The notes: generated by a model from the sequence alone, not told the origin. Counted from the stretch's first letter, positions 1 to 19,812 are shown. The stretch is 64,000 nt of DNA from an uncultured Thermoleophilia bacterium (GCA_903927755.1 CAIYOD010000164.1:742-64741); one strand, 5' to 3'. A program made the numbers and translations.

Positions 1-1247
1 ACCGCGGCTACTGCGATGAGCACGCCGAGGGCGAGCCACGGCTGCCGGCGAGCATCGGCGCCTCGACCCTCCGCGATCACAGCTGCCCGCGCCGGACCCG
101 CGACCGCCTCCAGAGCCCACGCCACGAAGACACCACTCGCCATGAGCCCTGGGAGCAGCCCCACGGGCGCGTTCACGTAGCCGGCGGCGCTGGTGAACGC
201 GGTCGTGGCGCCGGCGATCACCGCAGGCGCCCACACCCAGTAGAGCAGCCGGGCCCCGGCCTCCCGCTTCTCGCGCGGCACGAACAGGTACAAGTACGGC
301 GCGAGCAGGACGTAGACGATCACGAGTCCGCCCGAGTCCAGCAGAGGGCGCTGCCCGGCGAGCCACAGCGCCACCGGCAGCGCGGCGAGGAGGACGCGCC
401 CGACGCGCGGCCAGCGCGTGAAGACAAGGTAGACGAGCAGGGCCGCCACGACGAGATACGGCCGCGACCAGAGAAACCGCAGAAAGCCTTGGGCGACACC
501 ATAGGCCTTGTCGGCGCCGCCCAACTGGTCCAACTCGTCGGCCACCGACATGGTGTAGGCCCAGGACCCTTGCAGATTCGCGAGGCCGAAGCTGAGAGTG
601 AGCAGGCCGACCGGAACGAGCACGACGATGCCCCCCAGGACCCAGTAACTGATCGCCCGCCAGGCTGGATGCCCCGTGGGCGGGCCATCCGGGTCGGGCG
701 GCCGCGCGAACGCAAACTCCGCCAACATACCCACCGACCGTCTCCCCATGGCGAGAGCCATGAGGACGGCGTAGAAGGGCATGACGAACAGCAGCGTCGG
801 GTACGCGACCACGGCCAGGCCATAGGCGACGCCGGAGGCGAGAGCCCAGGCGCGGCCGCCGCTCCACGTCACGACCGCGAGGCCGAGCGCCGCGCCCAGC
901 GTCAGCAGCGCGGCGCCCATCGTGTTGTAACTCAGCTGCGGCGTCTCCCAGTGGATGAAGGTCACGAAGACGAGCGCCACAGCGACGGAGAGCTCCCAGC
1001 GCACCAGGCGACGCAAGACGACGAACACGACCACGGCGACGCCGATCATGAGCAGCAGGTAGAGGTGCCTCGTGTAGAGGACGAGGCCCGTGACGTCGTA
1101 GTCGCGGAGCACGCCGAAGATCTTGACGAACGGATACGAAAGGAAGCCGCTGACCTGGGCGAGGTTCTCCTCATCCACGAACGGCGTATCGCCGAGGGCC
1201 CACCTCCAGGGCACGAGGATGTAGAAGCTCTCGTCTTGCAGGTCCAT
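1..1247 (-). CDS. Polytopic membrane protein, ArnT/PMT_2-like GT-C glycosyltransferase. The 3' end runs off the left edge, so it is absent from the ORF track.
   Basis: Own minus-strand translation from ATG 1247: MDLQDESFYILVPWRWALGDTPFVDEENL..., then continuous hydrophobic helices with no stop down to base 1. The DE-x-F-Y loop motif resembles the first periplasmic loop of ArnT/PMT-type GT-C enzymes. An in-frame TM helix lies upstream, so the start may be ATT at 1403. Confidence 0.6.
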   Translation of the reverse strand, partial: MDLQDESFYILVPWRWALGDTPFVDEENLAQVSGFLSYPFVKIFGVLRDYDVTGLVLYTRHLYLLLMIGVAVVVFVVLRRLVRWELSVAVALVFVTFIHWETPQLSYNTMGAALLTLGAALGLAVVTWSGGRAWALASGVAYGLAVVAYPTLLFVMPFYAVLMALAMGRRSVGMLAEFAFARPPDPDGPPTGHPAWRAISYWVLGGIVVLVPVGLLTLSFGLANLQGSWAYTMSVADELDQLGGADKAYGVAQGFLRFLWSRPYLVVAALLVYLVFTRWPRVGRVLLAALPVALWLAGQRPLLDSGGLVIVYVLLAPYLYLFVPREKREAGARLLYWVWAPAVIAGATTAFTSAAGYVNAPVGLLPGLMASGVFVAWALEAVAGPARAAVIAEGRGADARRQPWLALGVLIAVAA

Positions 1248-1392
1248 CCCGAGAAAGAGACGCCGCCAGGTGAGGATGACCCCGGCGACCGCAGCCGCGA
1301 GCGCGGTGGCGCCGAAGAGGACGGCGGACGCAGAGCGGACGCCGCGCGCTTCGCCGTCCGAGGAGTGCGAGACGCCAGCGTCGGCGTCGGCT

Positions 1393-2349
1393 TCAGTCGA
1401 AATTGATGCGCTCCTTCTCGATCACCAGCGGGCGATGGTACACCTGTGTGTGGATCGACCCGATGTACTCACCCAGCATCCCGATGAAGAAGAGTTGCAC
1501 GCTGGCGAACAGATACACACCGATCACCAGCGGAGCCAGGCCGAGCTCGAACGTGTCCCACATCGTCAGCTTGAGGATGAGATAGACGAGCGCCACCAGG
1601 AGCGCCAGCAGCGACGACGCGAACCCGGCCATCGCCGCCAGGCGAAGCGGGACCTTGCTGTGGTTGGTGATGCCGAGCATGGCCATGTCGTACAGCGTGT
1701 AGAAGTTGTTCTTGGTGATGCCTCGATGTCGCGTCGGCTGGGTGTAGAGGATCTCGGCGCGCTCGTAGCCGAGGTCGCAGATCAGCCCGCGGAAGTACGG
1801 ATACGGGTCGTCGATCTCGCGGAGCGTGTCCATGACGACCCGGTCGTACAGCCCGAACCCCGTGAAGTTCCGCACCAGTGGAACCTCGCTGAGCCGGTCG
1901 ACGAGCCGGTAGAACATGCCGCGCAGGAAGAACATGGCGCGCTTCTCGCGGCTCTCCTGCTTCACGCCGACGACGACCTTGTAGCCCGCCTCCCACTTGG
2001 CGACGAAATCGCGGATCATCTCGGGCGGGTCCTGCAAGTCGGCGACGATGCTGATCACCGCGTCGCCGCGCGCCTGCAACAGCCCGTGGAACGGCGAGCG
2101 GATATGGCCGAAGTTGCGCGTGTTGACGATGACCTTGACTCTGCGGTCCTCGGCGCAGATCCCGCGAAGGATCTCGACGGTGCGGTCCGTCGACGCATTG
2201 TCGATGAATACGTGTTCCCAGGTGTAGGGCTCATCGCCGCGCGGGGGCAGCGTCTCGAGTACTTCGCGTACCTGACGATGCACCTCGGCGACGTTCTGCT
2301 CCTCGTTGAAACACGCTGTGACCACACTCAGCATGGGCACGCCGATCAC
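1393..2349 (-). CDS. GT2 polyprenol-phosphate glycosyltransferase (GtrB/DPM1/ArnC-like)
   Basis: MLSVVTACFNEEQN..FIDNASTDRT..IVADLQDPPEMI, plus two C-terminal TM helices. Start is either GTG 2349 (GTGA overlap with the upstream stop) or ATG 2334. The ORF track extends to 2385. Confidence 0.85.
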   Translation of the reverse strand: MIGVPMLSVVTACFNEEQNVAEVHRQVREVLETLPPRGDEPYTWEHVFIDNASTDRTVEILRGICAEDRRVKVIVNTRNFGHIRSPFHGLLQARGDAVISIVADLQDPPEMIRDFVAKWEAGYKVVVGVKQESREKRAMFFLRGMFYRLVDRLSEVPLVRNFTGFGLYDRVVMDTLREIDDPYPYFRGLICDLGYERAEILYTQPTRHRGITKNNFYTLYDMAMLGITNHSKVPLRLAAMAGFASSLLALLVALVYLILKLTMWDTFELGLAPLVIGVYLFASVQLFFIGMLGEYIGSIHTQVYHRPLVIEKERINFD

Positions 2350-3557
2350 ATCCTTCGTTCCTCGGGCACACCGTACACCACGCACTCGAACGAGTCGTGG
2401 CGATGCGCCCTAAGGTAGAGCGCGTAACCGTCGGTGAGTTCGGCCACCAGCCTGGGCAATTCCCATAAGTCGCCAGGACGATGATAGGCGGAAATAGCGA
2501 GCAGGGGTCTCTGCTCGCGAAGGAGAGCGCGCGCGCCGAGGAGCGTCGCGGCCTCGGCTCCTTCAACATCCATCTTGATGTACGTGACCCGCTCACCGCC
2601 GAGAACATCGTCCAACCGCGCGCACGGCACCGACACGGCCTCTTCGGCGTCGTACACGCCATCTACCAAGGCCGCGGTGCTGGAGGCCCCATCGCCGCCG
2701 GCGAAGACGCAGACTCCGTTCTCGGAACTGGTCGCGAGGCGGTGAACGGCGACTCGGCGACCGACGTCGTCGCCGAGCTCGTCGATTGTGCGCAGGAGGA
2801 CTTCGTGGTTGTCGGGGTCGGGTTCGAACGCGTGGATCGTCGCGAACGACGGCATCCTGTGCACCAGATCGACGATAGTGTCGCCCGTGTACGCCCCGCA
2901 GTCCACGAAGGCCTCGTCCTCGCGGAGGCGGACCACATCACACGGGAAGTACTGGTCCGGCTGCACGGCGTCGATCTCTGCGAAGTCGCCGGAGACCCGC
3001 CAGGCTATCTGCCCAATGTAGATCGTCATCGAAAGGTCGTCGGCCCAAACGCGCGCCTGTTCGAGGATGGAGTCGCGAGCGGCCAGAGTCGTAGTCGGCA
3101 GCGATGCCGCGTACTGCGGGAGGAGCGGCCCTCCCAGCGCGCGGACGATCTCCAGCCAAGAAGACACTCTGTGACAGCCCATCGCCTCCAGCCTCGCCCT
3201 GCTCTGCACAAACGAGTGGTCCCCGTTCCAGATCGCGACGACGAACAGGGCGTCCCCGCCCCAGCGACGCGCCGCGTCCTCGTGAGACACGACGGGCACG
3301 CCGAGCAGCCTGCTGCCGTGCAGTGCCCTATTGTGGTCGGCGAAGGCGATGACCGGCAGCGACCTCTTGAGCAGTTCGGCTCCGAGGCGCCGACCGAGTC
3401 CGCCCGCGCCGACGAGAACGACGGGAGGCGCGGTCGCGGATGTCAGCGCGACCGCCAGCCGACGCTCTCTCTCGCGTGCTGGTGCCGCCCCCTCGGCAAG
3501 CACGGCGTCCAGCTCGGGGACGCGCCCTGCGATCGGTGGGTGGTCGAGCGGCTGCAT
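2346..3557 (-). CDS. FkbM-family methyltransferase with N-terminal Rossmann-like domain
   Basis: C-terminal half has AFEPDPDNHEVL and IKMDVEGAEAATL, typical of FkbM SAM methyltransferases. The N-terminus has VVLVGAGGLGRRLG. Confidence 0.8.
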   Translation of the reverse strand: MQPLDHPPIAGRVPELDAVLAEGAAPARERERRLAVALTSATAPPVVLVGAGGLGRRLGAELLKRSLPVIAFADHNRALHGSRLLGVPVVSHEDAARRWGGDALFVVAIWNGDHSFVQSRARLEAMGCHRVSSWLEIVRALGGPLLPQYAASLPTTTLAARDSILEQARVWADDLSMTIYIGQIAWRVSGDFAEIDAVQPDQYFPCDVVRLREDEAFVDCGAYTGDTIVDLVHRMPSFATIHAFEPDPDNHEVLLRTIDELGDDVGRRVAVHRLATSSENGVCVFAGGDGASSTAALVDGVYDAEEAVSVPCARLDDVLGGERVTYIKMDVEGAEAATLLGARALLREQRPLLAISAYHRPGDLWELPRLVAELTDGYALYLRAHRHDSFECVVYGVPEERRM

Positions 3558-3561
3558 CCCC

Positions 3562-4128
3562 TCAATCCCTTTCTGCGGTCATCTCGTCAGTATCGCTGTC
3601 ACGCCGGAGTTGCTTCCCCTTTCCCCGCGCCCCCGCTCCGAAGCTGTAGTACTTGTGGCCCACGTAGCTCGCCACCACCACTCCGGCCGTGAACACCGCC
3701 TGGATCACGTATGCGTTCACAGGCAGGGCTCTCGAGGCAAGAGGAAAGAAGATCAGATTCACCGCCATTGTCACCAGATAGACAATCGAGAATCGCGGCA
3801 GCTCGTACAGCACCCGGCCGTGGCTCCGGAACACGACGTAGCGATAGCCGAGATACGCATTCGCGATGGAGACCATATACGACAACACGATGATGACGGC
3901 ATTGCTGAGCGCGCCGTTCAGCAGGTAGTAGAGGACGGCGAACACGCCGTAGCCGAAGAGGGTGTTCCAGGCGCCTATCGCGAGATACAGCAGCTGCTCT
4001 CGATAGCGCTGGAACCGGCACGGGATCAGACGATCGGCCGCATGTTGAACCCAGAGACGACGCGGGTGGACCTCGTCCTGCTCAGGCGCGGCCGGAGCCG
4101 TGCCCCCTGCCGCTCGGTGAGAAGACAA
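3562..4128 (-). CDS. GtrA-family membrane protein (putative polyprenol-phosphate-sugar flippase)
   Basis: Small four-helix membrane protein with LLYLAIGAWNTLFGYGVFAVLYYLL and GYRYVVFRS, both GtrA-like signatures. Confidence 0.75.
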   Translation of the reverse strand: MSSHRAAGGTAPAAPEQDEVHPRRLWVQHAADRLIPCRFQRYREQLLYLAIGAWNTLFGYGVFAVLYYLLNGALSNAVIIVLSYMVSIANAYLGYRYVVFRSHGRVLYELPRFSIVYLVTMAVNLIFFPLASRALPVNAYVIQAVFTAGVVVASYVGHKYYSFGAGARGKGKQLRRDSDTDEMTAERD

Positions 4129-4134
4129 GACCGG

Positions 4135-4926
4135 TCACCGCGTCCAGGCGGCAGGCGCGCGCCCGAGAATCGCCGGCACCTGCTCGACGCTCGCAAGTAC
4201 GCGCCCAAGAGGATCCTCGGAGGCATCCGGCGGCGTCGGGAGCTTCACCCCAGCTCCGGGAGCAGGAACGTACGCCCATGCACACCCGCATCGCCTGGCC
4301 ATCCCGATGTCGCTCGTCCATGAATCGCCCACGACCAGGATCTCGCGCGGCGCCAGACGGTGGTCCGCGGCAGCCCACTCGAGCATGAACGGCTCCGGCT
4401 TGCCGACGACCGCGTCCGCACTGCGCCCGCACTGCGTCTCCACGAGCGCGAGCACGCGGCCGCAGCCGGGCTTCGCAACCCCCGAGGGCCCCGGATAAGT
4501 GAGGTCGCGATTGCAGCCGACGAGCATGCACTCTCTCCGCGCCACCCTGACGGCCAGGGCCGCGGGCAGGAGCCGCGGCTCATCCCCCACCGCCTGCCTC
4601 CGGTCCAAGCCCACTACGACCGCGTCCGCCTCCCCCTCGTCCCGGACGACACGCATGCCGGCAGCGGCCAGCTCCGCGCCGAGGGCCAGCGTCCCGAGAA
4701 CCCACACACACTCGACGCTCTGGGCGCCGAGCCAGCGGGCCGTTACGGCCGCAGAGGAATACACGGCGTCGAGAGCCGCGGGAATCCCGATACCGACCAG
4801 CGCATCGCCGATTTCCCCCCGCGTCCTTCCCGACGCATTGGTCAGATAGAGCGCTTGGCGGCCAGTCGCACGGACCTCCGCCACCGCCTCAGAAGCTCCG
4901 GCCACCACCTCGCCGGCGAGCAGCAA
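4135..4926 (-). CDS. HAD-superfamily hydrolase, subfamily IIA (NagD-like phosphatase); true start probably upstream of 4926
   Basis: LYLTNASGRTR and VVGDSWTSDIGMA motifs. The catalytic motif I (FDLDGTLL) is encoded in frame at 4927-4944, upstream of the first ATG/GTG/TTG. Confidence 0.7.
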   Translation of the reverse strand: MLLAGEVVAGASEAVAEVRATGRQALYLTNASGRTRGEIGDALVGIGIPAALDAVYSSAAVTARWLGAQSVECVWVLGTLALGAELAAAGMRVVRDEGEADAVVVGLDRRQAVGDEPRLLPAALAVRVARRECMLVGCNRDLTYPGPSGVAKPGCGRVLALVETQCGRSADAVVGKPEPFMLEWAAADHRLAPREILVVGDSWTSDIGMARRCGCAWAYVPAPGAGVKLPTPPDASEDPLGRVLASVEQVPAILGRAPAAWTR

Positions 4927-4996
4927 CGTGCCGTCCAGGTCAAACGCGACCGCGCGGATTCCCTCGATCTGCCGCAGCGCACCTGTGTCGCGCGGG

Positions 4997-5815
4997 CTAT
5001 TCGTAGCGACCCCCCGCCGCCTCGATCATGCGATCGTAGCGGCTCTGGAGCATCTCGATGCGAGCATGGTCCTCCTCGAAGATACAGCCGTAAAAGTCGC
5101 GCTTGTTCTTGAGCCACATGAGCTCGAACCCGACGGCCTTGAGGATGCCCTTGTCGGCCTCGCCCCCAAGGCCTTCCGGACACGCGAAGACGACCTTGCG
5201 GGTCTCGTACCGGTCGATGCAGCGCTCGGGCAGACGGCGCATGAAATCCAGCGTTGCCGCCGACACCCCGCCTCCGAGCGCGCACTCCATGTCCAGCGCC
5301 TTGGCGCGCGTGAACAGCCTGGCCGCGACCTCGAAGACCTCGTCGCTGTTGATGTCCTCACGCGTTAGACCCATGGAACCGCACATGTCGACCCTGCCGA
5401 GGACGATGCCGTCGAGTTCGCGGACCTCGTCGAGTTCCAGCATAGAATCGAAGTTGGCCACACCGGTGACCGTTTCGATGTTCACGCAGAACGACACCTG
5501 ATCGCGTTCGTCTTCGGGAAACGCGAGCTTGACCGCCATGAGGAACTTGTGCAGCGCCCACGGCGACTCGACCATCGGGCCCACCACGCGGTCCACCCCG
5601 ATCACCCGCGCTTCGTACATGTCGCGCACGGCCTCGCACCCACCGACCTTCATGGTCAGCCCGAGGCCTGCGGCGGAGATGACCTCCTTCAGCCGGATGG
5701 CCTCCTCGAGGCGAGTACCCTCCGCCTCGAATTCCGCCTTGACGCCGATGACATGGTGGTTCTCCCGCAGATCCTGCAATTGCTCGACCATCTTGCGTTC
5801 GAGTTCGTTCATCAC
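4997..5815 (-). CDS. HpcH/HpaI-type aldolase / citrate-lyase-beta-like TIM-barrel protein
   Basis: VVGPMVESPWAL and NIETVTGVANFDSMLEL..LDGIVLGRVDMCGSMGL resemble the HpcH/HpaI core motifs. The N-terminal region is atypical. Confidence 0.55.
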   Translation of the reverse strand: MMNELERKMVEQLQDLRENHHVIGVKAEFEAEGTRLEEAIRLKEVISAAGLGLTMKVGGCEAVRDMYEARVIGVDRVVGPMVESPWALHKFLMAVKLAFPEDERDQVSFCVNIETVTGVANFDSMLELDEVRELDGIVLGRVDMCGSMGLTREDINSDEVFEVAARLFTRAKALDMECALGGGVSAATLDFMRRLPERCIDRYETRKVVFACPEGLGGEADKGILKAVGFELMWLKNKRDFYGCIFEEDHARIEMLQSRYDRMIEAAGGRYE

Positions 5816-5816
5816 T

Positions 5817-7784
5817 TCACCTCTCTTCGGCCGCGTACCGCGGCCCGATCATGTTCTGAGCGAACTCCTCAGAGCTCAGGAACGGGAACATGTCCTCCAG
5901 CGGCTTGGACACGAGACGCCCATCAGGAAGCCGCTGCGCGATGACCTTGGGCGTGAAGGCCCGCTCAGGATCCATGGCTACATCCACCAGCGCCGCTCCC
6001 TCGCTTGCGAGGGCGGCCCCGATGGCCTCGTCGAGCTCGTCGTGGCGGGTGACTCGGGTCGCCTCGATGCCATACGCGCCCGCAACGGCGACCATGTCCG
6101 GGAACGTGAGACCACTGCCCGGCCCCTCGCCCACCCTGTAGCCGTCGAAGATGTTGTCCTGCGTCTGCCGGATCGAGACATAGCCGGCGTTGTCGAACAC
6201 GAAGATCTTCACCGGCAGACGATGCTGCGCAATCGTCTGCAACTCCTGGATGTTCATCTGTATGCTCCCGTCTCCGGCCAGGCAGACCACGCGCCCCGGC
6301 GGAGTGGACGGCGCGGCGTCCCCACGGCGCGCGAACGCAGCACCGACGGCGGCTGGGACATCGTAGCCCATTCCGGCCGTGCCCGAGTTGACGAGCAGGC
6401 GTTGGCGGCGCTTGAAGGCGAAGGCCTGGATCGTGATCACACAGGCCGAACCATTCGCGCACACCACAAGGTCTCCTTCCTCCAACTGCGCCGACAGTCG
6501 CTCAACGAAGACATACGGGTCTATCGGCGTCGCACTGCCCCGGGCCTCAGGCAGCATCACCGGGTAGCGGCGACGGCGCTCCAGACACCACTCGATCCAC
6601 TTGGCATGGGGCTCGACGGGCTCTCGTGCGGCCAAGCGTGCCAGTTCCTCGAGGAAGAACCGCACGTCCGCCTGCACCGCCAGGTCCGGGAAGACCGTCG
6701 GCTTGGCGAGCTCCGCTTCGTCGATGTCCACGACGATGCGATAGGCATGGTGGGCGAACGCCGCGAACTCGTAACCCACCTGCCGGACGTTCAGCCGGCA
6801 TCCCAACACGAGGGCGAGGTCCGCGTTCTGCAGCGCGAAGTTCCCCGCCCGATCGCCGACGCTCCCCGGCCTTCCGGCGAACAGCGGATGACCGTCCCAC
6901 AGCAGGTCGCAGGCATTCCAGGCTGTGCACACAGGCACGCCGAGCGCATCGATGACCTCCAGGAGAAGGTCGTGCGCTCCGGTCAGGCGCACTGCCCCGC
7001 CGGCCAGGATGACCGGATGCTCCGCCGCGCGGAGGCGGTCGAGTGTCTCGCGCGCCGCGGCTCGTGCGGCCTCACGGTCGAAGCGGCCGCTGAGGGCCCC
7101 CGGCGCCTGGGCGGCCGGTTGGATGGCAGGCCACGGTTCAAGAGCAGGGCCGGGTGGCCGCGGTACCTGCTCATGGGCGCCAGACCGCCCGGTCGTCTCG
7201 GCGCCTTCCGTCTCGTCCTCGAACTCGGCCGGATCGAATCCGAACAGACGGACCGGATCCACTTCCGCCGCCTGGACGTCGAGAGGGAAGTCCAGCCACA
7301 CCGGGCCCGGACGGCCATGCGTGGCCAGCCACGCGGCTTTCTCGAAGTGATAGCGTGCGGTGGCCGGATCGGTGACCGACACCGCATACTTCGTAATGGG
7401 GGCGACCAGGCGGACGATGTCCGCCTCTTGGTCGCCCAGTTGGCGCAGCGGAAGTCCCGTGCTCGCGACGGTCGTGTCGCGCCGGACCTGTCCGGACACG
7501 CAGAGCCCTGCGATCGAGTCGTGCCACTGGCCGAGGACGCCAGTGATCGCGTTCGTGCCCCCCGGGCCGGTGGTGACGCAGGCCACACCGATGCCGCCCG
7601 ACGTCCTGGCATAGCCCTCGGCGGCGATCGTGCACGCCTGCTCATGATGGCAGAACACCAGGTCAAGGTCGTCCCGCCGTCCGAGGGCGTCGTCAAGATG
7701 CATGGCGCCGCCGCCGGTCACAAGGAAGACGTGATGTACGCCCAGACCGGCGACTGCTTCGGCCACATAGTCAGCGACTCTCAA
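5817..7784 (-). CDS. Thiamine-diphosphate-dependent enzyme of the acetolactate-synthase/YerE type (three-domain)
   Basis: N-terminus HHVFLVTGGGAMHL..HEQACTIAAEGYAR; ThDP-binding motif CLAGDGSIQMNIQELQT..VFDNAGY; has a low-complexity insert near residue 200. Confidence 0.85.
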   Translation of the reverse strand: MRVADYVAEAVAGLGVHHVFLVTGGGAMHLDDALGRRDDLDLVFCHHEQACTIAAEGYARTSGGIGVACVTTGPGGTNAITGVLGQWHDSIAGLCVSGQVRRDTTVASTGLPLRQLGDQEADIVRLVAPITKYAVSVTDPATARYHFEKAAWLATHGRPGPVWLDFPLDVQAAEVDPVRLFGFDPAEFEDETEGAETTGRSGAHEQVPRPPGPALEPWPAIQPAAQAPGALSGRFDREAARAAARETLDRLRAAEHPVILAGGAVRLTGAHDLLLEVIDALGVPVCTAWNACDLLWDGHPLFAGRPGSVGDRAGNFALQNADLALVLGCRLNVRQVGYEFAAFAHHAYRIVVDIDEAELAKPTVFPDLAVQADVRFFLEELARLAAREPVEPHAKWIEWCLERRRRYPVMLPEARGSATPIDPYVFVERLSAQLEEGDLVVCANGSACVITIQAFAFKRRQRLLVNSGTAGMGYDVPAAVGAAFARRGDAAPSTPPGRVVCLAGDGSIQMNIQELQTIAQHRLPVKIFVFDNAGYVSIRQTQDNIFDGYRVGEGPGSGLTFPDMVAVAGAYGIEATRVTRHDELDEAIGAALASEGAALVDVAMDPERAFTPKVIAQRLPDGRLVSKPLEDMFPFLSSEEFAQNMIGPRYAAEER

Positions 7785-7790
7785 GATAGC

Positions 7791-8678
7791 CTACCTATCG
7801 GTTTCAAAGGCGGAGACCTCGAGAGTATCCAGCCGGCCGGCGTACCAAGACAGGAGGCGGGAGACACCCTCCTCCGTCGTAGTGAAGGAAACGGCCGGCA
7901 GGGCCTCCGCGAGCTTCGCGCCGTCGCCAGAATATTCGTCACCGGCGCCCTGGTCCCTGACCACCACGGGCACGTCTCGGCCGGAAACGCGGATGACGAG
8001 GTCGGCCAGCTCACGCAGACTGACCGGATCTCCAGGAGTCACGTTGTAGGCCCCAGGGGGCAGCCCGGACGGACCGCAGTCGAGCGCGCGCTCAACGACC
8101 GCAACGAGATCATCCACCCAGACGTAGCTGAATCGCCGATCCTGACGGAGCGTGACCGGCATGCCGAGAAGCGCCTTGCAACAAGCGTTCGAGATGAACC
8201 TGATCGCGTAGTCCTCTCCCGGCCCGTAGACACCGAAGGGTCGCAACTCGACAGCGTTGTGATCGTTGGCCAGCCAGAGCGCCTCCACATACTTCGAGAA
8301 CCCATGCTCATCTGCTGGCACCCGGTCGCCCAGAGCCTCTTCAGGGACGCGCACCACGGGGCGCTGGGCGCCGTAGACCGCTCCCGAGCCCAGCACCACC
8401 AAGCGTCCGAAGGCGTCGCGGCAGCGGACGAGACTGTAGAACTGCCTGAGGTTGCGCTCGGCGAGGTGATCCCGGTCGGCCGCATTGCGATGCCCCGGCT
8501 TGACGGCCGCGTGGACGACAGCGTCAACCGGGTGCGCGGCCAGCCAGCGCCGGACTGCGTCTGCATCGACCAGATCGAGCTCCGCATGTGTCGGTGCAAG
8601 GACTCCATGGACGGCGCTCAGACCAAGGACGAGGCGTCGGCCGATGAAGCCGCTCCCGCCCGTCACCAGCACTCTCAC
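7791..8678 (-). CDS. NAD-dependent sugar epimerase/reductase (SDR), similar in size to CDP-abequose/paratose synthases
   Basis: MRVLVTGGSGFIGRRL Rossmann motif and a YxxxK-type motif (FSKYVEALW). GTGA overlap with the upstream gene. Confidence 0.85.
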   Translation of the reverse strand: MRVLVTGGSGFIGRRLVLGLSAVHGVLAPTHAELDLVDADAVRRWLAAHPVDAVVHAAVKPGHRNAADRDHLAERNLRQFYSLVRCRDAFGRLVVLGSGAVYGAQRPVVRVPEEALGDRVPADEHGFSKYVEALWLANDHNAVELRPFGVYGPGEDYAIRFISNACCKALLGMPVTLRQDRRFSYVWVDDLVAVVERALDCGPSGLPPGAYNVTPGDPVSLRELADLVIRVSGRDVPVVVRDQGAGDEYSGDGAKLAEALPAVSFTTTEEGVSRLLSWYAGRLDTLEVSAFETDR

Positions 8679-9946
8679 GCTCCCACTCCCTCCTCAGCGT
8701 CCGCCCGGATCCACGATCGCCTCCTGGTCGCCCCGTCTGTGAGGACGGCAACCAGGAGCAATGCAAGGAGCACAGGATACAGTGCGGTCGACCAGCTTGC
8801 CGTGATGCCGAAGCGGACGTAGTCGAGCGGCACCAGGAGAAGCCCGAACACGACGGCATACAGCCGCCCCCGTGACGAGCGCATTCCCCAGGCGCCCACG
8901 AGCGCCAGCGGCAGGTAGAGATGGACGAGTGTGTAGTCGTGGCTCTCCAACGGCAGAAGGAGAGCGCACACGATCAACGCCGTGAGCTTTCTCCACGCCT
9001 CGAGATCGTAGAGCAGCAGGCGAAGGAAGACCAGCGCGAACACCCCCAGCGCAGCCACCAGGTACAGAGGGGGTATGTGCACCATCATCTGCAGCGCGTA
9101 GCCCGTGGCGCGGTCGATGAACAGCACGAGGCCGTGGAGCGTGTGGCCGTGCTGAAACCCCCACTCGAGCCCACTCTGTCCGGCATGCCCCCTCAGCGTC
9201 GCGACAGTGTCCTTCAGGACCTCGGCGAAGCCTAGTCCTGAGATCGCCGCCAGGCTGACGGCGGACACGATGGTCACGATCACGGAGCCTGCCACGGCAA
9301 GCGCGAACTGCCTCCACCGCCGGTCGCTCAGAGGCAGCACCAGCAGGACGACCCAGTAGTACTTACCTGCGATGGCCAGCGCGAGCGGCAGCCAGGCCCA
9401 GCCCGAGCGGCGCACGTAATAAAGGTAGACGAAGGCGGCGAGCAACACGAAGATCAGCATCTCGAGGTTCGCGCGGTCGACGAGAAACAGGACCGGGTAC
9501 GAGAGGATGCAGAAGACCAAGACGTAAGCGTCGCGCAGACCCCGCGGGCCCAGGCGAGCAGTCACGCCGTACCAGAGCGTCATGACGAGCACGCAGGCGA
9601 AGAGAACTGTGACCGCAAGCCACGCCGGCAACTCGGGCAGCACCGCCAGCCCGCGCGTGACCATGTGCAGGAATCCCGAGTAGACGATGTTCGAGTCGCC
9701 GCCCCTGCCGTACCGCAGGACGTTTCCGTACACTTCCAGGAAGTCGCCGAAGCGATCCTCCGGCCGGAACAGGAACGTGGTGCTGGGCCAGCGCCGGTCC
9801 GTGAAAGCGGCGATGGCGCCATGGTAGGCGCCGCTCGCCAGTGTCCCCACGAAGACGATGACGCCGATCAGCCGGACCTCGACGCCGCCGTCACGCTGAA
9901 GATCGCTGAGGTCATCTCCGCGCAGGAACCCTCGAAGCGCGCTCAT
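8675..9946 (-). CDS. Polytopic GT-C-like membrane protein, divergent paralog (DUF2029/GT87-like)
   Basis: The first 120 codons of ORF 8675-10306 overlap the upstream gene out of frame, so the true start is ATG 9946 (ATGA overlap with the stop at 9943). Shares TTFLFRPEDRFGDF, VDRANLEMLIFVLL, QHGHTLHGL, HDYTLVHLYLP and LVPLDY with the two paralogs. Confidence 0.7.
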   Translation of the reverse strand: MSALRGFLRGDDLSDLQRDGGVEVRLIGVIVFVGTLASGAYHGAIAAFTDRRWPSTTFLFRPEDRFGDFLEVYGNVLRYGRGGDSNIVYSGFLHMVTRGLAVLPELPAWLAVTVLFACVLVMTLWYGVTARLGPRGLRDAYVLVFCILSYPVLFLVDRANLEMLIFVLLAAFVYLYYVRRSGWAWLPLALAIAGKYYWVVLLVLPLSDRRWRQFALAVAGSVIVTIVSAVSLAAISGLGFAEVLKDTVATLRGHAGQSGLEWGFQHGHTLHGLVLFIDRATGYALQMMVHIPPLYLVAALGVFALVFLRLLLYDLEAWRKLTALIVCALLLPLESHDYTLVHLYLPLALVGAWGMRSSRGRLYAVVFGLLLVPLDYVRFGITASWSTALYPVLLALLLVAVLTDGATRRRSWIRADAEEGVGA

Positions 9947-11232
9947 CGTGTCCGCGGCGGCGTCGCTGATAACTCGGCAGCAGACGGGCGTGCCCGATCC
10001 ACGATCGCCAGCGCCGTCAAGGCGATCATTGCCAGCGGATAGACGATCACCGAGATACTGATGCCGTCGGCGTAGAGCGCGAAATAGTGATAGTCCACGG
10101 GAATGAGCAGTACGCCGAACAGGCCCACGTAGACGAGATCCCAGCGCGACACACGCGGGGAGTTGATGAAGAAGACGATCGGGAAGTAGAGGTAGATCAG
10201 CGTGTAGTCCGCCGAGACGAACGGCAGCAGCAGCGCCGGCACGATGCTCAGCAGGACCCGCTTCCAGCGCTCCGTCTCGCGAAACACGACGTGGATGGCG
10301 ATGCACACGAAGATGAGGGCGACAGCGACCTCATACAGCGTCATCTGCCAGTCGGTGTTGGCCGCTCCCGACAGGAAGCCCGGCACGCGCAGGAGCCCCC
10401 ACAGCGTGTGCCCATGCTGGATGCCGCCGCCGCCCATCACCATCATGTTCTGATAGACGGCGCGGCCATTCGAGCTCATCTCCCAGAAGCGCTGGGGCCC
10501 GATGTGGCCGAGGGCGGGGACGAGCAGCGTGCTGACGGCCGTCATACCGATGGCCAGGCCCACGGTCTGCGCCAGAGTCCGGTAACGGCGCTCGGCAAGG
10601 AGCAGAAGGAGCAGAGTGGCCGGATACAGCTTGAAGGCGATCGCGGCGGCCAGGAACACAGCGGCAGCCCACGACGACCCGCGAACGTAGAGAGAGTAGA
10701 AGAAGCCCGCCAGGAGGACGAAGAGCAGCATCTCGAGGTTCGCACGATCGAGCACCCACAGCACCGGGTAGGCAAGGACGATGAGGACGAAGCCGTACTG
10801 AACCTTGGTCAACGTGTGCTCTGTACAGTCGAGCACCCATCCACGAAGCATCAAGACCATCGTGAAGAGAAAGGCCAGGATCATGGCGGCGAATCCGACA
10901 CGCATCGGAACGATGGTCGCGGCGAGCGTCGTGAGGATGGCGAAGGGGAAGTAGACCACCCAGATAGCCTCGCCCCTCAGGAAAGCGAGCGCGGCGAGGT
11001 ACGGGTTGTCCCAGTCATTGAAGTGGTCTTCCGGACGAAACAGGAACGTCGAGGACGGATACCCGTGACCAAGGTAGAAGGCCTCCCTGTAGTGGAAGAC
11101 GATGGACAGGACAGTGCCGACAAGGAGGATCGTCACCAGGACGCGGACGCGACGGGCCTTGGCTTCCCGCTCCACGAGCACGTCGCTGCCCATTCCGGGA
11201 GCCGCGACGGTCGACCGCACGCTCTGCCTCAC
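9943..11232 (-). CDS. Polytopic GT-C-like membrane protein, paralog (DUF2029/GT87-like)
   Basis: About 11 TM helices. Motifs: STFLFRPEDHFNDW, VLDRANLEMLLFVLLAGFFYSLYVR, AIAFKLYPATLLLLLLAERR, IQHGHTLWGLLR. Confidence 0.7.
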   Translation of the reverse strand: MRQSVRSTVAAPGMGSDVLVEREAKARRVRVLVTILLVGTVLSIVFHYREAFYLGHGYPSSTFLFRPEDHFNDWDNPYLAALAFLRGEAIWVVYFPFAILTTLAATIVPMRVGFAAMILAFLFTMVLMLRGWVLDCTEHTLTKVQYGFVLIVLAYPVLWVLDRANLEMLLFVLLAGFFYSLYVRGSSWAAAVFLAAAIAFKLYPATLLLLLLAERRYRTLAQTVGLAIGMTAVSTLLVPALGHIGPQRFWEMSSNGRAVYQNMMVMGGGGIQHGHTLWGLLRVPGFLSGAANTDWQMTLYEVAVALIFVCIAIHVVFRETERWKRVLLSIVPALLLPFVSADYTLIYLYFPIVFFINSPRVSRWDLVYVGLFGVLLIPVDYHYFALYADGISISVIVYPLAMIALTALAIVDRARPSAAELSATPPRTR

Positions 11233-12227
11233 AGGAACCTGTCTCTGACCACGTAGTTCGGCCTCTTCCTAACCTCCTCGTTGATGCGCCAGACGTATTC
11301 GCCGATCACACCCAGCATCACCATGATGAGCCCGCCCACAAGGAGGATGGCGATCATGATCGGGGCCCAGCCGGTGAAGGGCGTCTCGCCGAACGCCCAC
11401 CCCACGGCGATGACGATGCTGTAGACAAGCCCGCACACCGCGGTGATCATTCCGACCACCGAGATGAATCGGATCGGGAGGAACGAGGCATCGAGGATGG
11501 CGTCCAGAAAGACCTTGAGCTTCTTCGAGAAGTTGTACTGCGACACCCCGATCGTCCTCTTCATCCGGACGTAGGGAATGAAGCTGGTCCGGTAGCCCGT
11601 CCAGAGAACGTCACCCTGGAAGAACCGGTGCCGGACGTCGATGGAATTGAACGTGTCCATCGCTCGTCTGTCCATCAGCACGTAGTCGAAACCGCCCCTG
11701 GGAATCTGCGGGATCGAGATCCGCAGCATCCCGTAGGCCAGCCGAGACGCCACCTTGGCGAGCAGAGGATCGGAGCGATCGGTACGGTGGCAGATCACGA
11801 TCTCCGAGCCGGCCTGCCATTTCTCGACCATCTCGGGAATCAACTCCACCGGGTCCTGGAGGTCGGCGGAGATGTTGATGATCGCGTCGCCGGTCGCCTC
11901 CCGGAAGCCGGCGAGCATGGCCGCCATCTGGCCGAAGTTCCTCGTGAAGCTGATCGCGGTGACCTTCGGATCCTGCTCCCTCAGCGCCAGGATCTCCTGC
12001 AGCGACCCGTCCTTGGAGCCATCGTCCACGAACACGAACTCGTACTCGTACTCACTCAGGGCCGTCCCGAACAGCGATCGGATGCTCTCGTAGGTCTTGC
12101 TGATCGCACCCTCGTTCTGAAACACGGCTATCACGAACGAAACCTTCACCTGGTCCGCCTTTGCTCTCACCATCTTCGCCACTCGGCCAACGCTTCCCGA
12201 AGTCGATCCGGACCGGATCTCCGCCAC
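11229..12227 (-). CDS. GT2 polyprenol-phosphate glycosyltransferase (GtrB/DPM1-like), second copy
   Basis: VSFVIAVFQNEG..FVFVDDGSKDGS..ISADLQDPVELIPEMV, plus C-terminal TM helices. Its stop overlaps the downstream GT-C start (GTGA). Confidence 0.85.
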   Translation of the reverse strand: MAEIRSGSTSGSVGRVAKMVRAKADQVKVSFVIAVFQNEGAISKTYESIRSLFGTALSEYEYEFVFVDDGSKDGSLQEILALREQDPKVTAISFTRNFGQMAAMLAGFREATGDAIINISADLQDPVELIPEMVEKWQAGSEIVICHRTDRSDPLLAKVASRLAYGMLRISIPQIPRGGFDYVLMDRRAMDTFNSIDVRHRFFQGDVLWTGYRTSFIPYVRMKRTIGVSQYNFSKKLKVFLDAILDASFLPIRFISVVGMITAVCGLVYSIVIAVGWAFGETPFTGWAPIMIAILLVGGLIMVMLGVIGEYVWRINEEVRKRPNYVVRDRFL

Positions 12228-12314
12228 AGGAACAAGCCTTGGACTGCTTCGACAGGACCCAACGGCATCCCCCCGCGAGACGGAATGGGCCGGGGACCGC
12301 GCGCCGGCGCCGCG

Positions 12315-12322
12315 AGTATACT
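12315..12322. promoter_or_regulatory. Palindromic AGTATACT giving a TATACT -10-like box on both strands of the divergent intergenic region
   Basis: The only AT-rich element in the 181-nt gap between the divergent genes at 12227 (-) and 12409 (+). The same TATACT hexamer appears in the pyrG promoter candidate. Confidence 0.3.
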
Positions 12323-12408
12323 AGTCTCCACCTGCGACGGAGGCCCGCGGGTGACTCCGGGAGCTCGCGAAGGGTGTCGGGGCCGGACTCGGAACGCCAG
12401 GGATACCG

Positions 12409-12999
12409 ATGAATCAATCAATGTCCTACTACTCGCCTGATGAACTCGACGGCCTCGGCTTCGCCTCGTGCGGAAGCGACGTCCTCGTCAGCCGGAACGC
12501 CGCCATCCATCGCCCGGACAGGGTCAGCATCGGGGACCACGTCCGCATCGACGACTTCGTCGTCCTCACGGGCGGCGACGACGCGCTGGTGGCCATCGGC
12601 AGCTACGTCCACATCGCCGCTCACGCTGCCCTCTTCGGAAGCGCCGGCCTGGTGCTCGAGGACTTCGTGGGCGTGTCCGGGCGCGTGTCCCTCTACTCGA
12701 CCACGGATGACTACGGTGGTGACGTCCTCACCAACCCCACGGTCCCCGCTCGCTTCAAACGCGTGATCCGGGCGCCGGTCGTGCTACGGCGCCATGTCGT
12801 CGTCGGCGCCGGAAGTGTCATCCTGCCGGGCGTGACGATCGGCGAAGGCAGCGCGACGGGGGCTCTGACCCTGGTCAACCGCGACCTCGAGCCTTGGGGC
12901 ATCTACGTCGGGGCTCCTGCGCGGCTCCTGAAACGCCGTTCAGCGGGAGTGCTCGAGCTCGAGGCGGAGCTTCGCGCCTCCGACGAGGCAGACGCGTAG
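12409..12999 (+). CDS. Left-handed beta-helix (hexapeptide-repeat) acetyltransferase, probable sugar N/O-acetyltransferase
   Basis: Hexapeptide repeats: IGDHVRIDDFVVL, IGSYVHIAAHAAL, VVVGAGSVILPGVTIGEGSATGA. Confidence 0.8.
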   Translation: MNQSMSYYSPDELDGLGFASCGSDVLVSRNAAIHRPDRVSIGDHVRIDDFVVLTGGDDALVAIGSYVHIAAHAALFGSAGLVLEDFVGVSGRVSLYSTTDDYGGDVLTNPTVPARFKRVIRAPVVLRRHVVVGAGSVILPGVTIGEGSATGALTLVNRDLEPWGIYVGAPARLLKRRSAGVLELEAELRASDEADA

Positions 13000-13060
13000 C
13001 GGCACTGCGCTGATGTACCAGCGAGGATCCTGACCAACGACTCGTGATGAGGGGACCGAC

Positions 13061-14242
13061 GTGAGCACAGCTGAGCTGGCCATTCTGGGGGGAGAGCCCG
13101 AGTTCGCCGAACCGCTGCACGTCGGGAGACCGAATCTGGGCGATACCGGCAAGTTCCTTGAACGCGTCCGAGGCATCCTCGACGCGGCCTGGCTGACGAA
13201 CGACGGTCGCTGCGTCAGGGAGTTCGAGGAGCGCATCGCCGACCTCGCGCACGTCGAGCACTGCATCGCCATGTCCAGCGGCACGGCGGCCCTCGAGATC
13301 GCCAGCCGGGCGCTCGGCTTCTCCGAGGAGGTCATCATCCCGGCGTTCACGTTCGTGGCCACGGCACATGCACTGATGTGGCAAGGGGTGCGGCCCGTCT
13401 TCTGCGACATCACTCCAGACATCCACCACATCGATCCTGCGGCGATCGAGCCACTGATCACCCACCGCACGACCGGCATCATCGGCGTGCACCTCTGGGG
13501 GCAACCCTGTGATGCCGCCGCCCTCACGCAGGTGGCGAAGCGGCACGGATTGAAACTCATGTTCGACGCCGCCCACGCGCTTGGCGTGGAACGGGACGGC
13601 CGCCATGTAGGAGCGCTTGGAGACTGCGAGGTCTTCAGCTTCCACGCGACCAAGTTCCTGAACACACTGGAGGGCGGCGCAGTAGTCACGAACGACGACC
13701 AGCTCGCAGAGAAACTCCGCTTCATGCGGAACTTCGGTTTCTCAGGCGAGGACTGCGTCGCGCACCTCGGGACCAACGGCAAGATGAACGAGATCTCGGC
13801 CGCGATGGGCCTGACCCTGCTCGACCAGTACGACGACCTCATCTCGGCCAACAAGACGACGTACCAGGCGTTCGCCGACGAACTGCCGAGCGTCCCGGGG
13901 CTTCATGTCATCCAGTACCCCGACGACGGGCGCTACAACTACCAGCACGTGGTCGCCATGGTGGACGAAGCGGAGTCTGGACTGAGCCGAGACCGCATCG
14001 TTGCCGTGCTCCGCGCGGAGAACGTGCTCGCGAGGCGCTACTTCTATCCCGGCTGCCACCGCATGAAGCCCTACGCCGCGATGCACGAGTACGCCGGTCT
14101 CCACCTGCCGGTGACCGACGACGTCGCCGGGAGGGTCATCGTCTTCCCTGCAGGGCCCCAGTTGGCTCCCGCGGACGTCGGGCGCATCGGAGCGATCCTG
14201 CGCAAGGCATCTGACTCGGCACGGCGCATCACCGACGCCTAA
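13061..14242 (+). CDS. DegT/DnrJ/EryC1/StrS-family PLP-dependent sugar aminotransferase
   Basis: AMSSGTAALEIA, and the SFHATKFLNTLEGG motif with the PLP lysine retained. Confidence 0.85.
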   Translation: MSTAELAILGGEPEFAEPLHVGRPNLGDTGKFLERVRGILDAAWLTNDGRCVREFEERIADLAHVEHCIAMSSGTAALEIASRALGFSEEVIIPAFTFVATAHALMWQGVRPVFCDITPDIHHIDPAAIEPLITHRTTGIIGVHLWGQPCDAAALTQVAKRHGLKLMFDAAHALGVERDGRHVGALGDCEVFSFHATKFLNTLEGGAVVTNDDQLAEKLRFMRNFGFSGEDCVAHLGTNGKMNEISAAMGLTLLDQYDDLISANKTTYQAFADELPSVPGLHVIQYPDDGRYNYQHVVAMVDEAESGLSRDRIVAVLRAENVLARRYFYPGCHRMKPYAAMHEYAGLHLPVTDDVAGRVIVFPAGPQLAPADVGRIGAILRKASDSARRITDA

Positions 14243-14288
14243 GCGAAGCGCCGGTCACCGGGCAGTCCGGCCTGGCGTGTCGCTTCGC
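14243..14288. terminator. Inverted repeat between convergent genes (possible bidirectional terminator)
   Basis: GCGAAGCG (14243-14250) pairs with CGCTTCGC (14281-14288), separated by a GC-rich loop. No clear U-tract. Confidence 0.25.
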
Positions 14289-14312
14289 AGAGGATCGAAG
14301 GGCGGCCGGAGA

Positions 14313-15005
14313 TCACTCCCAAGCGTCGGTACGGATGTTCCCCTCCGGCACGCCGCGCCCACGCAGTTGCCTGGTGAGCCCGGCGAGCATCTCGGACGGG
14401 CCGCTCAGATAGAAGAGCGGCGCGTCGAGCCTCTCTATCGCCGGCCAGGCTGAGTCGACGTCGAGAACCCCTGCCGAGGCCTCCGCCACGAGCTTGCACG
14501 TGAGCGACGGCACCTCGCGGGCGCAGGCCTCGGCCAGCCGGCCGTAGATGAAGAGCTCCGGGGTCCGGGCGCCGTAGAACAGCAGCACCCTCGGCGCCGT
14601 CTTCGCCACCAGCGACTGCAAGAAGGCCGTGAACGCGGTCACGCCCGTGCCGCCGGCGAACAGGACGGCATCCCGGGAGGCATCCACAACGAACTCCCCG
14701 TATGGCAGCTTGAGCCAGACCTCACACCCCTCGGACAGCTCACGCTCCATCCTCGACGTGAACGCACCCTTAACGGCGTATGTGATCTCGAGGCGGTCCC
14801 TCTGCAGTGGCGGACTCGCGATCGAAAACACGCGGGAGTCCGGCCAGAAGCCGCCGGGCACGTACTCATCGAGCGCCAGGTGAAGGAACTGACCAGGCTT
14901 GAAGCGCGGCACCAGCGCGGATGGCCGCAGTTCCACGGTGTAGACGTGCTCTCCGTGATCAGTCACACGCTCGACACGGCAGGCGATCTTGCGGACGACG
15001 GCCAT
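14313..15005 (-). CDS. FNR-like FAD/NAD(P)H oxidoreductase, E3-type CDP-6-deoxy-delta-3,4-glucoseen reductase lacking the ferredoxin domain
   Basis: RVFSIAS (FAD-binding RxYS-like) and LFAGGTGVTAF (NAD-binding). Sits 9 nt downstream of rfbH. Only 230 aa, with no CX4CX2C motif. Confidence 0.65.
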   Translation of the reverse strand: MAVVRKIACRVERVTDHGEHVYTVELRPSALVPRFKPGQFLHLALDEYVPGGFWPDSRVFSIASPPLQRDRLEITYAVKGAFTSRMERELSEGCEVWLKLPYGEFVVDASRDAVLFAGGTGVTAFTAFLQSLVAKTAPRVLLFYGARTPELFIYGRLAEACAREVPSLTCKLVAEASAGVLDVDSAWPAIERLDAPLFYLSGPSEMLAGLTRQLRGRGVPEGNIRTDAWE

Positions 15006-15014
15006 GTGCGGCGC

Positions 15015-16370: not shown

Positions 16371-16374
16371 CTCG

Positions 16375-17535: not shown

Positions 17536-18272
17536 AAGTCATCGAGGGCGCGCTTGTCCCGCAGCGTGTCCATCGGCTGCCAGAAGCCGTGGTGCCGGTA
17601 CGCCGCGAGTTGGCCGTCGGACGCGAGCCGTTCGAGCGGCTCGCGCTCCCACAGCGTCGCATCGCCGTCGATGTAGTCCAGTGCTGCGGACTCCAGGACG
17701 AAGAACCCGCCGTTCATCCAGCCGCCGTCTCCCTCGGGCTTCTCCACGAACGAGCTCACCGACTCTTCGTCGGCGCCGAATTCCAGCGCCCCGAAGCGCC
17801 CCGGCGGCTGCACGGCGGTCACGGTCGCCAACTTGCCCTGGGATTCGTGGACGGCGAGCAGAGCGGAGAGGTCGATGTCGGCCAAGCCGTCGCCGTAGGT
17901 CATCATGAAGCGCTCGCCGCCGACGTACTCCGCCACCCGTTTGAGGCGGCCGCCGGTCTGTGTGTCCGGTCCGGTGTCGACCAGCGTCACCCGCCACGGC
18001 TCGGCGGCGTTCTGGTGGACCTCCATCTCCCGACCGCGCAGGTCGAATGTCACATCGGCGTTGTGCAGGAAGTAGTTGGCGAAGTACTCCTTTATGAGGT
18101 AGCCCTTGTACCCCAGGCACACCACGAACTCAGTGAACCCATGGCTCCCGTAGATCTTCATGATGTGCCACAGGATGGGGTGCTCGCCGATCTCTGCCAT
18201 GGGCTTGGGCTTGACCTGAGTCTCTTCCGAGAGGCGGGTGCCCAGCCCGCCGGCGAGTATCACGGCTTTCAT
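17499..18272 (-). CDS. rfbF: Glucose-1-phosphate cytidylyltransferase
   Basis: MKAVILAGGLGTRLSEET..KPKPMAEIGEHPILWHIMKIY. ATG 18272 is preceded by GGAGGA; the ORF track extends to 18320. Confidence 0.9.
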   Translation of the reverse strand: MKAVILAGGLGTRLSEETQVKPKPMAEIGEHPILWHIMKIYGSHGFTEFVVCLGYKGYLIKEYFANYFLHNADVTFDLRGREMEVHQNAAEPWRVTLVDTGPDTQTGGRLKRVAEYVGGERFMMTYGDGLADIDLSALLAVHESQGKLATVTAVQPPGRFGALEFGADEESVSSFVEKPEGDGGWMNGGFFVLESAALDYIDGDATLWEREPLERLASDGQLAAYRHHGFWQPMDTLRDKRALDDLWERGAAPWKTW

Positions 18273-19752: not shown

Positions 19753-19812
19753 ATTACGCCATGCGACTGCCGAGCGCCTCGGGAGTCGTACCGCAGTGTC
19801 GGCGCCGCACCG

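Follow-up and report, generated by a model that had tools for sequence, protein, structure and literature searches.

Four genes for a proposed sugar side chain

We analyzed a stretch of DNA of 64,000 nucleotides (hereafter the window) from an uncultured Thermoleophilia bacterium (GCA_903927755.1 CAIYOD010000164.1:742-64741), focusing on four adjacent genes at 4135-8678 that encode a phosphatase, an aldolase, a thiamine diphosphate (ThDP) enzyme, and a short-chain dehydrogenase/reductase (SDR), and that probably build the side chain of a branched deoxysugar. The window is contig C164 of the genome searched here, a 3.5-Mb, GC-rich metagenome-assembled genome that is 87% complete. The UMP kinase encoded on it is most similar to proteins of metagenome-assembled genomes labelled Actinobacteria or Actinomycetota. 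The genes belong to a glycan locus on the minus strand that spans 1-19752 and lies directly downstream of rpsB-tsf-pyrH-frr-uppS-cdsA. An initial annotation of this DNA had assigned the four genes to a yersiniose-like sugar, and all four were found on the minus strand where it had placed them.

4135-4977 (listed open reading frame 4135-4926), minus strand: HAD-IIA phosphatase in the position called slot X below; Hydrolase_6 and Hydrolase_like domains, motifs I-IV
4997-5815, minus strand: HpcH-like class II pyruvate aldolase (MMAR_2331 type) that would supply the 4-hydroxy-2-oxoacid donor; Pfam HpcH_HpaI 37 bits, gathering score 25
5817-7784, minus strand: YerE-like ThDP carboligase, 655 aa; TPP_enzyme_N, _M, and _C domains, E 3e-29, 1e-29, and 5e-36
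7791-8678, minus strand: extended SDR, 295 aa, that would reduce the C-1' ketone of the side chain in the manner of YerF; Pfam Epimerase PF01370, E 5e-25

The genes are packed in the manner of an operon, with 6 nucleotides between the SDR and ThDP genes and 1 nucleotide between the ThDP and aldolase genes, and the phosphatase gene starting near 4977. A gene of glycosyltransferase family 87 (GT87) upstream of the SDR overlaps its start by 4 nucleotides. Relatives were sought by scanning species-representative genomes with the aldolase. They were present in at least 489 species from most phyla, and we compared the best 80 loci by tblastn with the window proteins and by all-against-all clustering of open reading frames. 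The set of genes shared among these loci is referred to as the cassette.

The ThDP enzyme contains the motif GDGS at residue 504, followed by FDNAGY, and its HHEQA motif, which includes the catalytic Glu, aligns with that of JanthE. The latter is a characterized enzyme of Janthinobacterium sp. HH01 that has been described as YerE-like. JanthE was the best match in the PDB (8rph, E 1e-117, 397 bits, both halves aligned), while the best acetolactate synthase (ALS) reached 215 bits. The window enzyme scored below every ALS equivalog cut-off (for TIGR00118, 321 bits against 538), and ALS-like paralogues with 27-38% identity to it were found on other contigs of the same genome. Its identity to the ThDP genes of the cassette was 41-77%. 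Because JanthE outscores ALS, the ALS cut-offs were failed, and separate ALS paralogues exist in the genome, the enzyme is, judged by its sequence against JanthE, YerE-like and not an ALS. This agrees with the initial annotation, which had proposed a YerE-like enzyme. The NCBIfam and PDB rankings gave no support to an amino-acid ALS, a sulfoacetaldehyde acetyltransferase, or a phosphonopyruvate decarboxylase.

JanthE (PDB 8rph, 8rpi, 8rpj) is the best solved relative of the window enzyme, and the two differ in two respects. The ThDP motif is CDG in JanthE and GDGS in the window enzyme, and the latter has about 44 more residues in the linker that joins the N-terminal domain to the middle one (residues 183-240). 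Two length classes occur among relatives of the enzyme, one of about 600-610 aa and the other of about 640-690 aa.

The aldolase belongs to a family of 271 residues that is sharply conserved, with 60-87% identity across phyla, and this family length suggests the ATG at 5812 as its start. An AlphaFold2 model (predicted local distance difference test 87.7) was compared with known folds by Foldseek. The best matches were HpaI, HpcH, YfaU, and SwHKA, with a probability of 1.0 and a template modelling (TM) score of about 0.55, and pyruvate kinase barrels were matched as well. In a profile alignment, the HpaI segments QVES and GPAD, which hold the two metal ligands Glu149 and Asp175 of that enzyme, are matched by NIET and GRVD of the window protein, with Glu114 and Asp143. 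The protein failed the equivalogs for characterized HpaI and GarL enzymes, with 19-20 bits against cut-offs of 369-393. At the level of sequence, it is a member of a separate, uncharacterized subfamily.

The phosphatase has intact HAD motifs I-IV (DLDGT, LTNAS, GKP, and GDSWTSD) if it is read from the upstream stop, and these align with those of 11 HAD-IIA proteins from the cassette; the cap is of the IIA type. Hydrolase_6 scored 63.7 bits on this read-through. For the N-terminally truncated open reading frame, TIGR01460 gave 80.8 bits (cut-off 100).

The extended SDR has the Rossmann motif GGSGFIG. Near residue 125 it reads DEHG(F/Y/L)SKY, so that His takes the position of the canonical catalytic Tyr and a conserved Tyr follows immediately after the Lys. 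Of 59 copies from various phyla, 40 have this H-x3-K-Y arrangement in place of Y-x3-K, and it looks like a family-specific variant of the active site. The SDR could instead be an ordinary C-4 ketoreductase of the abequose or paratose synthase type that makes an unbranched 3,6-dideoxyhexose, with the ThDP enzyme and the aldolase serving another pathway. CDP-paratose and CDP-abequose synthases are indeed extended SDRs of similar size. However, the SDR matched no known sugar reductase equivalog in NCBIfam (best 52 bits against a cut-off of 275), and it carries the family-specific motif. In most cassette loci, its gene (33-73% identity) also immediately precedes that of the ThDP enzyme, and the window operon is translationally packed. 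We therefore give this alternative almost no weight.

The sugar to which the side chain would be attached is expected to come from four genes further upstream on the same strand. The initial annotation had placed rfbF, rfbG, rfbH, and E3 in one strand block with the ThDP and SDR genes, which our searches bear out.

17499-18320, minus strand: rfbF, glucose-1-phosphate cytidylyltransferase, makes CDP-glucose; TIGR02623 equivalog 431.8 bits, cut-off 300
16375-17535, minus strand: rfbG, CDP-glucose 4,6-dehydratase; TIGR02622 equivalog 461.2 bits, cut-off 278
15015-16400, minus strand: rfbH (E1), CDP-6-deoxy-4-keto-glucose 3-dehydrase; NF011936 RfbH equivalog 687.1 bits, cut-off 423
14313-15005, minus strand: E3-like flavin reductase of 230 aa that has no ferredoxin domain; Pfam NAD_binding_1, NAD(P)H-flavin reductase-like

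Because rfbF, rfbG, and rfbH exceed the NCBIfam equivalog cut-offs and an E3-like gene is present, a supply of CDP-4-keto-3,6-dideoxyglucose in the window is well supported by the gene content. The rfbF gene shares 54-68% identity with other cassette copies, and rfbH shares 80-89% with copies from Chloroflexota and Thermoleophilia. The true start of rfbH is probably near 16400, although the listed open reading frame extends to 16835. The short E3-like protein is not an artefact of truncation, since at least 13 cassette loci carry an orthologue of equal size after rfbH. In the majority of loci, no E3 is present at all.

Gene order and slot X across phyla

The loci were found in hosts from Chloroflexota, Actinomycetota, Bacillota, Bacteroidales, Elusimicrobiota, Geobacteraceae, Nitrosomonadaceae, Rickettsiales, Margulisbacteria, Saganbacteria, Saccharibacteria, and other groups. 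The best 80 loci included none from Mycobacterium marinum, Mycobacterium gastri, R. palustris, or Yersinia, and a search of plasmids returned only distant matches from Novosphingobium and Ilyobacter. The recurring order was rfbF-rfbG-rfbH-(E3)-extended SDR-ThDP-aldolase-slot X-GtrB-like GT2-GtrA, in which GT2 denotes glycosyltransferase family 2. In these loci, the GT2 shows 58-82% identity across phyla. The aldolase and ThDP genes were neighbors in 73 of 78 loci, mostly with the aldolase immediately downstream.

Slot X was found to hold one of three types of genes. The most frequent was a FabG-like SDR together with a protein resembling dehydroquinate synthase (DHQS), in 46 loci and additionally in L010. 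A HAD-IA phosphatase was found in 16 loci, and a HAD-IIA phosphatase, as in the window, in about 12. A single type was present in 74 of the 75 loci bearing any. In L010, from Actinomycetota, a FabG-like SDR, a DHQS-like enzyme, and a HAD-IIA protein follow the aldolase consecutively at 6594-9073, possibly as an intermediate state of a swap at slot X. In the aldolase tree, the type of slot X switches many times, and near-identical aldolases can differ in type (L052/L058 and L011/L014). We also considered a hydrolase of the metallo-beta-lactamase fold, which is encoded just upstream of the extended SDR in six loci (L012, L018, L036, L062, L065, and L069; for example, L069 6540-7280), as a fourth option. 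It was rejected, as it co-occurs with the DHQS type in three of these loci and with HAD-IA in one; elsewhere it is found with neither.

The DHQS-like protein of the cassette scored 392 bits on TIGR04425, 'AroB-related putative sugar phosphate phospholyase', with a cut-off of 400, and was closer to true DHQS than to other sugar-phosphate cyclases. The K, R, N, H, and H positions in its block '...K-x13-R-x3-N-x2-H-x3-H' match those of Helicobacter pylori DHQS; in DHQS structures, these residues bind carboxylate, phosphate, and metal. Neither a DHQS-family gene nor a FabG-like SDR was found in the window locus. The sole DHQS homologue in the genome (C164 66246-66980) lies just past the window end, 58 kb away, has 34% identity to the DHQS-like proteins of the cassette, and is probably the housekeeping aroB.

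The closest relative found was L088, a metagenome contig with 87% identity in the aldolase and 77% in the ThDP enzyme. L088 shares the uppS-cdsA context, a flank in which the nucleotide identity is 88%, and is collinear with the window except in three places. At exactly the position of the window phosphatase (4069-4999), L088 carries an SDR and a DHQS-like gene (10814-12616). In addition, L088 is without the FkbM methyltransferase gene of the window and without the block at 8677-14313, which is described below. In L088, matches to rfbF and rfbG at 1637-3449 are split over several frames, by frameshifts or assembly errors, so that its acceptor pathway may be defective or the assembly poor there.

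Known pathways and the predicted sugar

A unifying scheme for acyl-branched sugars has been proposed and partly tested, with erwiniose, caryophyllose, and gastriose as products (Steitz et al. 2022, PMC9306805). In this scheme, a pyruvate aldolase makes a 4-hydroxy-2-oxoacid, a YerE-like ThDP enzyme (ErwE, MMAR_2332, or MyGE) adds this acid to CDP-4-keto-3,6-dideoxyglucose, and a YerF-like reductase completes the branch (PMC9306805). The window follows the same logic of pyruvate aldolase, YerE-like ThDP enzyme, and reductase as ErwE/F/I/J for erwiniose and MyGE/MygI/MygF for gastriose. The aldolases differ in type, as ErwI is a BphI-type aldolase with an acetaldehyde dehydrogenase, whereas the window aldolase is HpcH-like.

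The closest parallel is the caryophyllose sub-locus MMAR_2327-2335 of M. marinum. The lipooligosaccharide genes tabulated for this organism include MMAR_2327 (GT87), MMAR_2329 (DHQS family), MMAR_2332 (ThDP-binding), MMAR_2333 (GT2), and MMAR_2335 (RfbH), and the range also includes an aldolase/citrate-lyase family protein and a glucose-1-phosphate cytidylyltransferase (PMC12395582). Loss of MMAR_2331 or MMAR_2332 abolishes the addition of caryophyllose, and mutants of MMAR_2331, MMAR_2332, and MMAR_2333 are without this sugar (PMC9306805, PMC5706390). The window shares with this sub-locus an aldolase adjoining the ThDP gene, rfbF, RfbH, a GT2, and a GT87. Where M. marinum has the DHQS-family MMAR_2329, the window has the HAD-IIA phosphatase in that slot and, in addition, an FkbM methyltransferase.

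Based on these comparisons, we propose, with a probability of about 0.7, that 4135-8678 is the side-chain module of a caryophyllose-type pathway for an acyl-branched 3,6-dideoxyhexose, with a branch that would be trimmed by the HAD phosphatase and would probably end in CH2OH. The initial annotation had envisaged a yersiniose-like sugar with a C-C extension. The extension is supported by the YerE-like ThDP enzyme and the conserved gene order, but the expected product is of the caryophyllose/gastriose type and not yersiniose, because the aldolase fits the published scheme for longer branches and M. marinum has the same neighbors. The aldolase, which the initial annotation had set outside the known yersiniose route, is not foreign to known routes: it belongs to the published scheme for branches of more than two carbons (PMC9306805). 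The phosphatase does appear to be undescribed. The further suggestion that the aldolase and phosphatase jointly supply the 2-oxoacid donor is in line with the aldolase-ThDP-SDR order conserved in most of the 80 loci. The type of pathway has thus already been published, and what is undescribed is the phosphatase in the slot. Particular to the window are the variant with a phosphatase only, the clean replacement of one slot relative to a near relative, and the co-occurrence with FkbM.

A simpler product would be plain yersiniose, with a two-carbon branch taken from pyruvate by a YerE/YerF pair and with the aldolase-like and HAD genes unrelated to it. YerE and YerF, which make yersiniose A in Yersinia pseudotuberculosis, are the founding example; like the window pair, they combine a ThDP flavoenzyme of the ALS superfamily with a reductase acting on the RfbH product, and a ThDP enzyme and an SDR alone would suffice. 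The relative MyGE takes pyruvate in vitro (PMC9306805). The yersiniose route, however, uses pyruvate directly and needs neither an aldolase nor a phosphatase. The presence of the aldolase beside the ThDP gene in 73 of the 78 loci, with its strong conservation across phyla, is a coupling not expected of a bystander. Furthermore, ErwE rejects pyruvate (PMC9306805) and the aldolase mutant of M. marinum loses caryophyllose (PMC5706390). Plain yersiniose is therefore very unlikely to be the product.

For the caryophyllose-type module, we envisage the following steps. RfbF, RfbG, and RfbH with E3 would give CDP-4-keto-3,6-dideoxy-D-glucose, by chemistry that is established for these families and with the gene identities assigned above. 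The HpcH-like aldolase would join pyruvate and an aldose into a 4-hydroxy-2-oxoacid, as its fold, its metal ligands, and the published scheme suggest. The aldose would probably be a sugar phosphate, which may have three, four, or five carbons and is most likely erythrose-4-phosphate. The HAD-IIA phosphatase would dephosphorylate the aldose phosphate before or after the aldol step, a role suggested by the replacement of genes at slot X. By homology, the ThDP enzyme would then decarboxylate the 2-oxoacid and add the acyl anion to C-4 of CDP-4-keto-3,6-dideoxyglucose. Finally, the extended SDR would reduce the new C-1' ketone, as YerF does.

Several points weigh against this proposal. To our knowledge, natural substrates have not been used in assays of any enzyme of the cassette type. 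The TM-score of the aldolase model is only about 0.55, and the equivalent of the HpaI catalytic residue Arg70 falls outside the profile alignment, with an invariant Lys56 roughly at that place. The correspondence with M. marinum is one of annotation and gene order, not of alignment, and MMAR_2332 itself was assayed with surrogate substrates only (PMC9306805). L010 holds both the DHQS pair and HAD-IIA, so the options at slot X are not strictly exclusive, and in five or six loci neither option is beside the aldolase. In a search of 7-10 independent close pairs for positions in the aldolase, ThDP enzyme, and SDR that co-vary with the type of slot X, the best columns did not exceed a label-swap null. 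The partner enzymes thus show no sign of having been retuned to the type of slot X, and this search does not settle the order of the steps. Lastly, the phosphatase gene has no canonical start: there is no ATG, GTG, or TTG upstream of motif I (DLDGT, 4941-4927). After the aldolase stop, the sole in-frame candidates are a CTG at 4977-4975 and an ATC at 4968-4966, with an AGG a few bases upstream. The region 4924-4999 contains either a non-canonical start or an assembly error; the gene may be poorly expressed, or the assembly may be wrong there.

Some of these points favor a reading in which the sugar is long-branched but the phosphatase takes no part in making the side chain. An unphosphorylated aldehyde would then be used, the HAD protein would be a general phosphatase of sugar phosphates or nucleotides or would serve the recycling of the lipid carrier, and the DHQS-like enzyme of the relatives would act elsewhere. 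The presence of both options in L010, the loci with neither, the missing start codon, and the lack of co-varying residues all fit this reading, as does the aldehyde for caryophyllose, which Steitz et al. drew unphosphorylated (PMC9306805). Against it, the position directly after the aldolase is shared by the DHQS-SDR pair and by HAD-IA and HAD-IIA proteins, whose subfamilies are unrelated, nearly always one type at a time, the swap between the window and L088 is precise, and the removal of a phosphate ester is common to all three options. On balance, we regard a phosphatase without a role in the side chain as rather unlikely.

The three unrelated types of proteins that remove phosphate esters and share the slot beside the aldolase, together with the presence of the DHQS type in an organism with a methyl-ended C6 branch, suggest that the aldehyde partner is a sugar phosphate. 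Erythrose-4-phosphate as the partner would give a C7 acid resembling 3-deoxy-D-arabino-heptulosonate 7-phosphate (DAHP). With the DHQS type, oxidation, elimination of the phosphate, and reduction, followed by ketoreduction, would yield 3,7-dideoxy-heptulosonate for caryophyllose, with a CH3 end. With a HAD phosphatase, hydrolysis would leave a CH2OH end, and the window product would be the 6'-hydroxy analogue, whose branch the FkbM methyltransferase may O-methylate. The branch of gastriose is likewise CH2OH-ended and O-methylated and in this resembles the product predicted here. Slot X might thus act as a switch for the branch end, in which the DHQS-like enzyme and FabG-like SDR set CH3 and HAD sets CH2OH. 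The aldehyde would be a sugar phosphate such as erythrose-4-phosphate, the 2-oxoacid a DAHP-like 3-deoxy-heptulosonate 7-phosphate, and the window sugar an undescribed 6'-hydroxy, possibly O-methylated, analogue of caryophyllose. We put this detailed version forward tentatively, at somewhat less than even odds. The main text of PMC9306805 mentions neither a phosphatase nor a DHQS-like enzyme, and in the literature that we searched, no link of DHQS, a phosphatase, or erythrose to caryophyllose was found. A carbocyclic, caryose-like product made by the DHQS-like enzyme was also considered and set aside, as the window is without that gene and such a product fits poorly with M. marinum, where these parts yield caryophyllose, an acyclic sugar.

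Caryophyllose, gastriose, and other 3,6-dideoxy sugars with long branches are rare surface sugars of immunological relevance, and the origin of their side-chain precursors has not been established. The window and L088 form a natural pair that differs at slot X, with a HAD phosphatase in one and a DHQS-like enzyme and a reductase in the other, which bears on both the source of the aldehyde and the role of the DHQS-like enzyme. Because the cassette occurs so widely (Actinomycetota, Chloroflexota, gut Bacteroidales, Elusimicrobiota, Rickettsiales, and candidate phyla), sugar enzymes probably stand behind many annotations as 'acetolactate synthase', 'citrate lyase beta', or 'dehydroquinate synthase'.

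Putative export genes and genomic setting

Downstream of the four genes, the window carries genes that could export and transfer the sugar:

3562-4128, minus strand: GtrA-like small membrane protein, putative flippase component; Pfam GtrA_DPMS_TM, E 2e-13
2346-3557, minus strand: FkbM-family methyltransferase; Pfam Methyltransf_21, TIGR01444
1393-2385, minus strand: GtrB-like GT2, putative transferase of the branched sugar to polyprenyl phosphate; PgfS- and ArnC-like
3-1247, minus strand: membrane glycosyltransferase of the GT-C type, likely the final transferase; 56% identity to the gene after the GT2 in L088

The GtrB-like GT2 is conserved at 58-88% identity across phyla, lies downstream of the aldolase in 51 loci, and is the proposed counterpart of LosA/MMAR_2333 of M. 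marinum, which is also a GT2. The GtrA-like gene has 74% nucleotide identity to its counterpart in L088. No Pfam match was found for the GT-C gene. FkbM homologues were found, among the 80 loci, only in two HAD-IIA loci, L010 and L058, and have no counterpart in L088. As a last step of the pathway, the GtrB-like GT2 would load the sugar onto polyprenyl phosphate, GtrA would flip it, and the GT-C enzyme would attach it to the surface glycan. This arrangement resembles the three-component Gtr modification systems (GtrA/GtrB/GtrC), with a GtrB-like GT2, a GtrA, and a polytopic GT-C encoded after the sugar genes. The donor in Gtr systems is UDP-glucose, whereas that of the window would be a CDP-linked branched dideoxy sugar.

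The aldolase family was not found in 36 other species genomes of the genus, nor in 24 genomes of the same class, and the cassette is therefore an accessory surface trait in its host organism. The G+C content is 0.62-0.69 in the glycan locus (1-20000) and 0.72-0.75 in the housekeeping region at 26000-30000. The lower G+C content and the lack of the aldolase in the 36 congeneric species are compatible with horizontal acquisition.

Compared with the collinear L088, the window has an extra block at 8677-14313 that contains a tandem pair of GT87 genes, another GtrB-like GT2, and, on the plus strand, an acetyltransferase and a DegT aminotransferase. This block probably provides a second decoration, with an N-acetylated amino sugar. 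The GT87 gene at 18421-19752 is likewise extra relative to L088.

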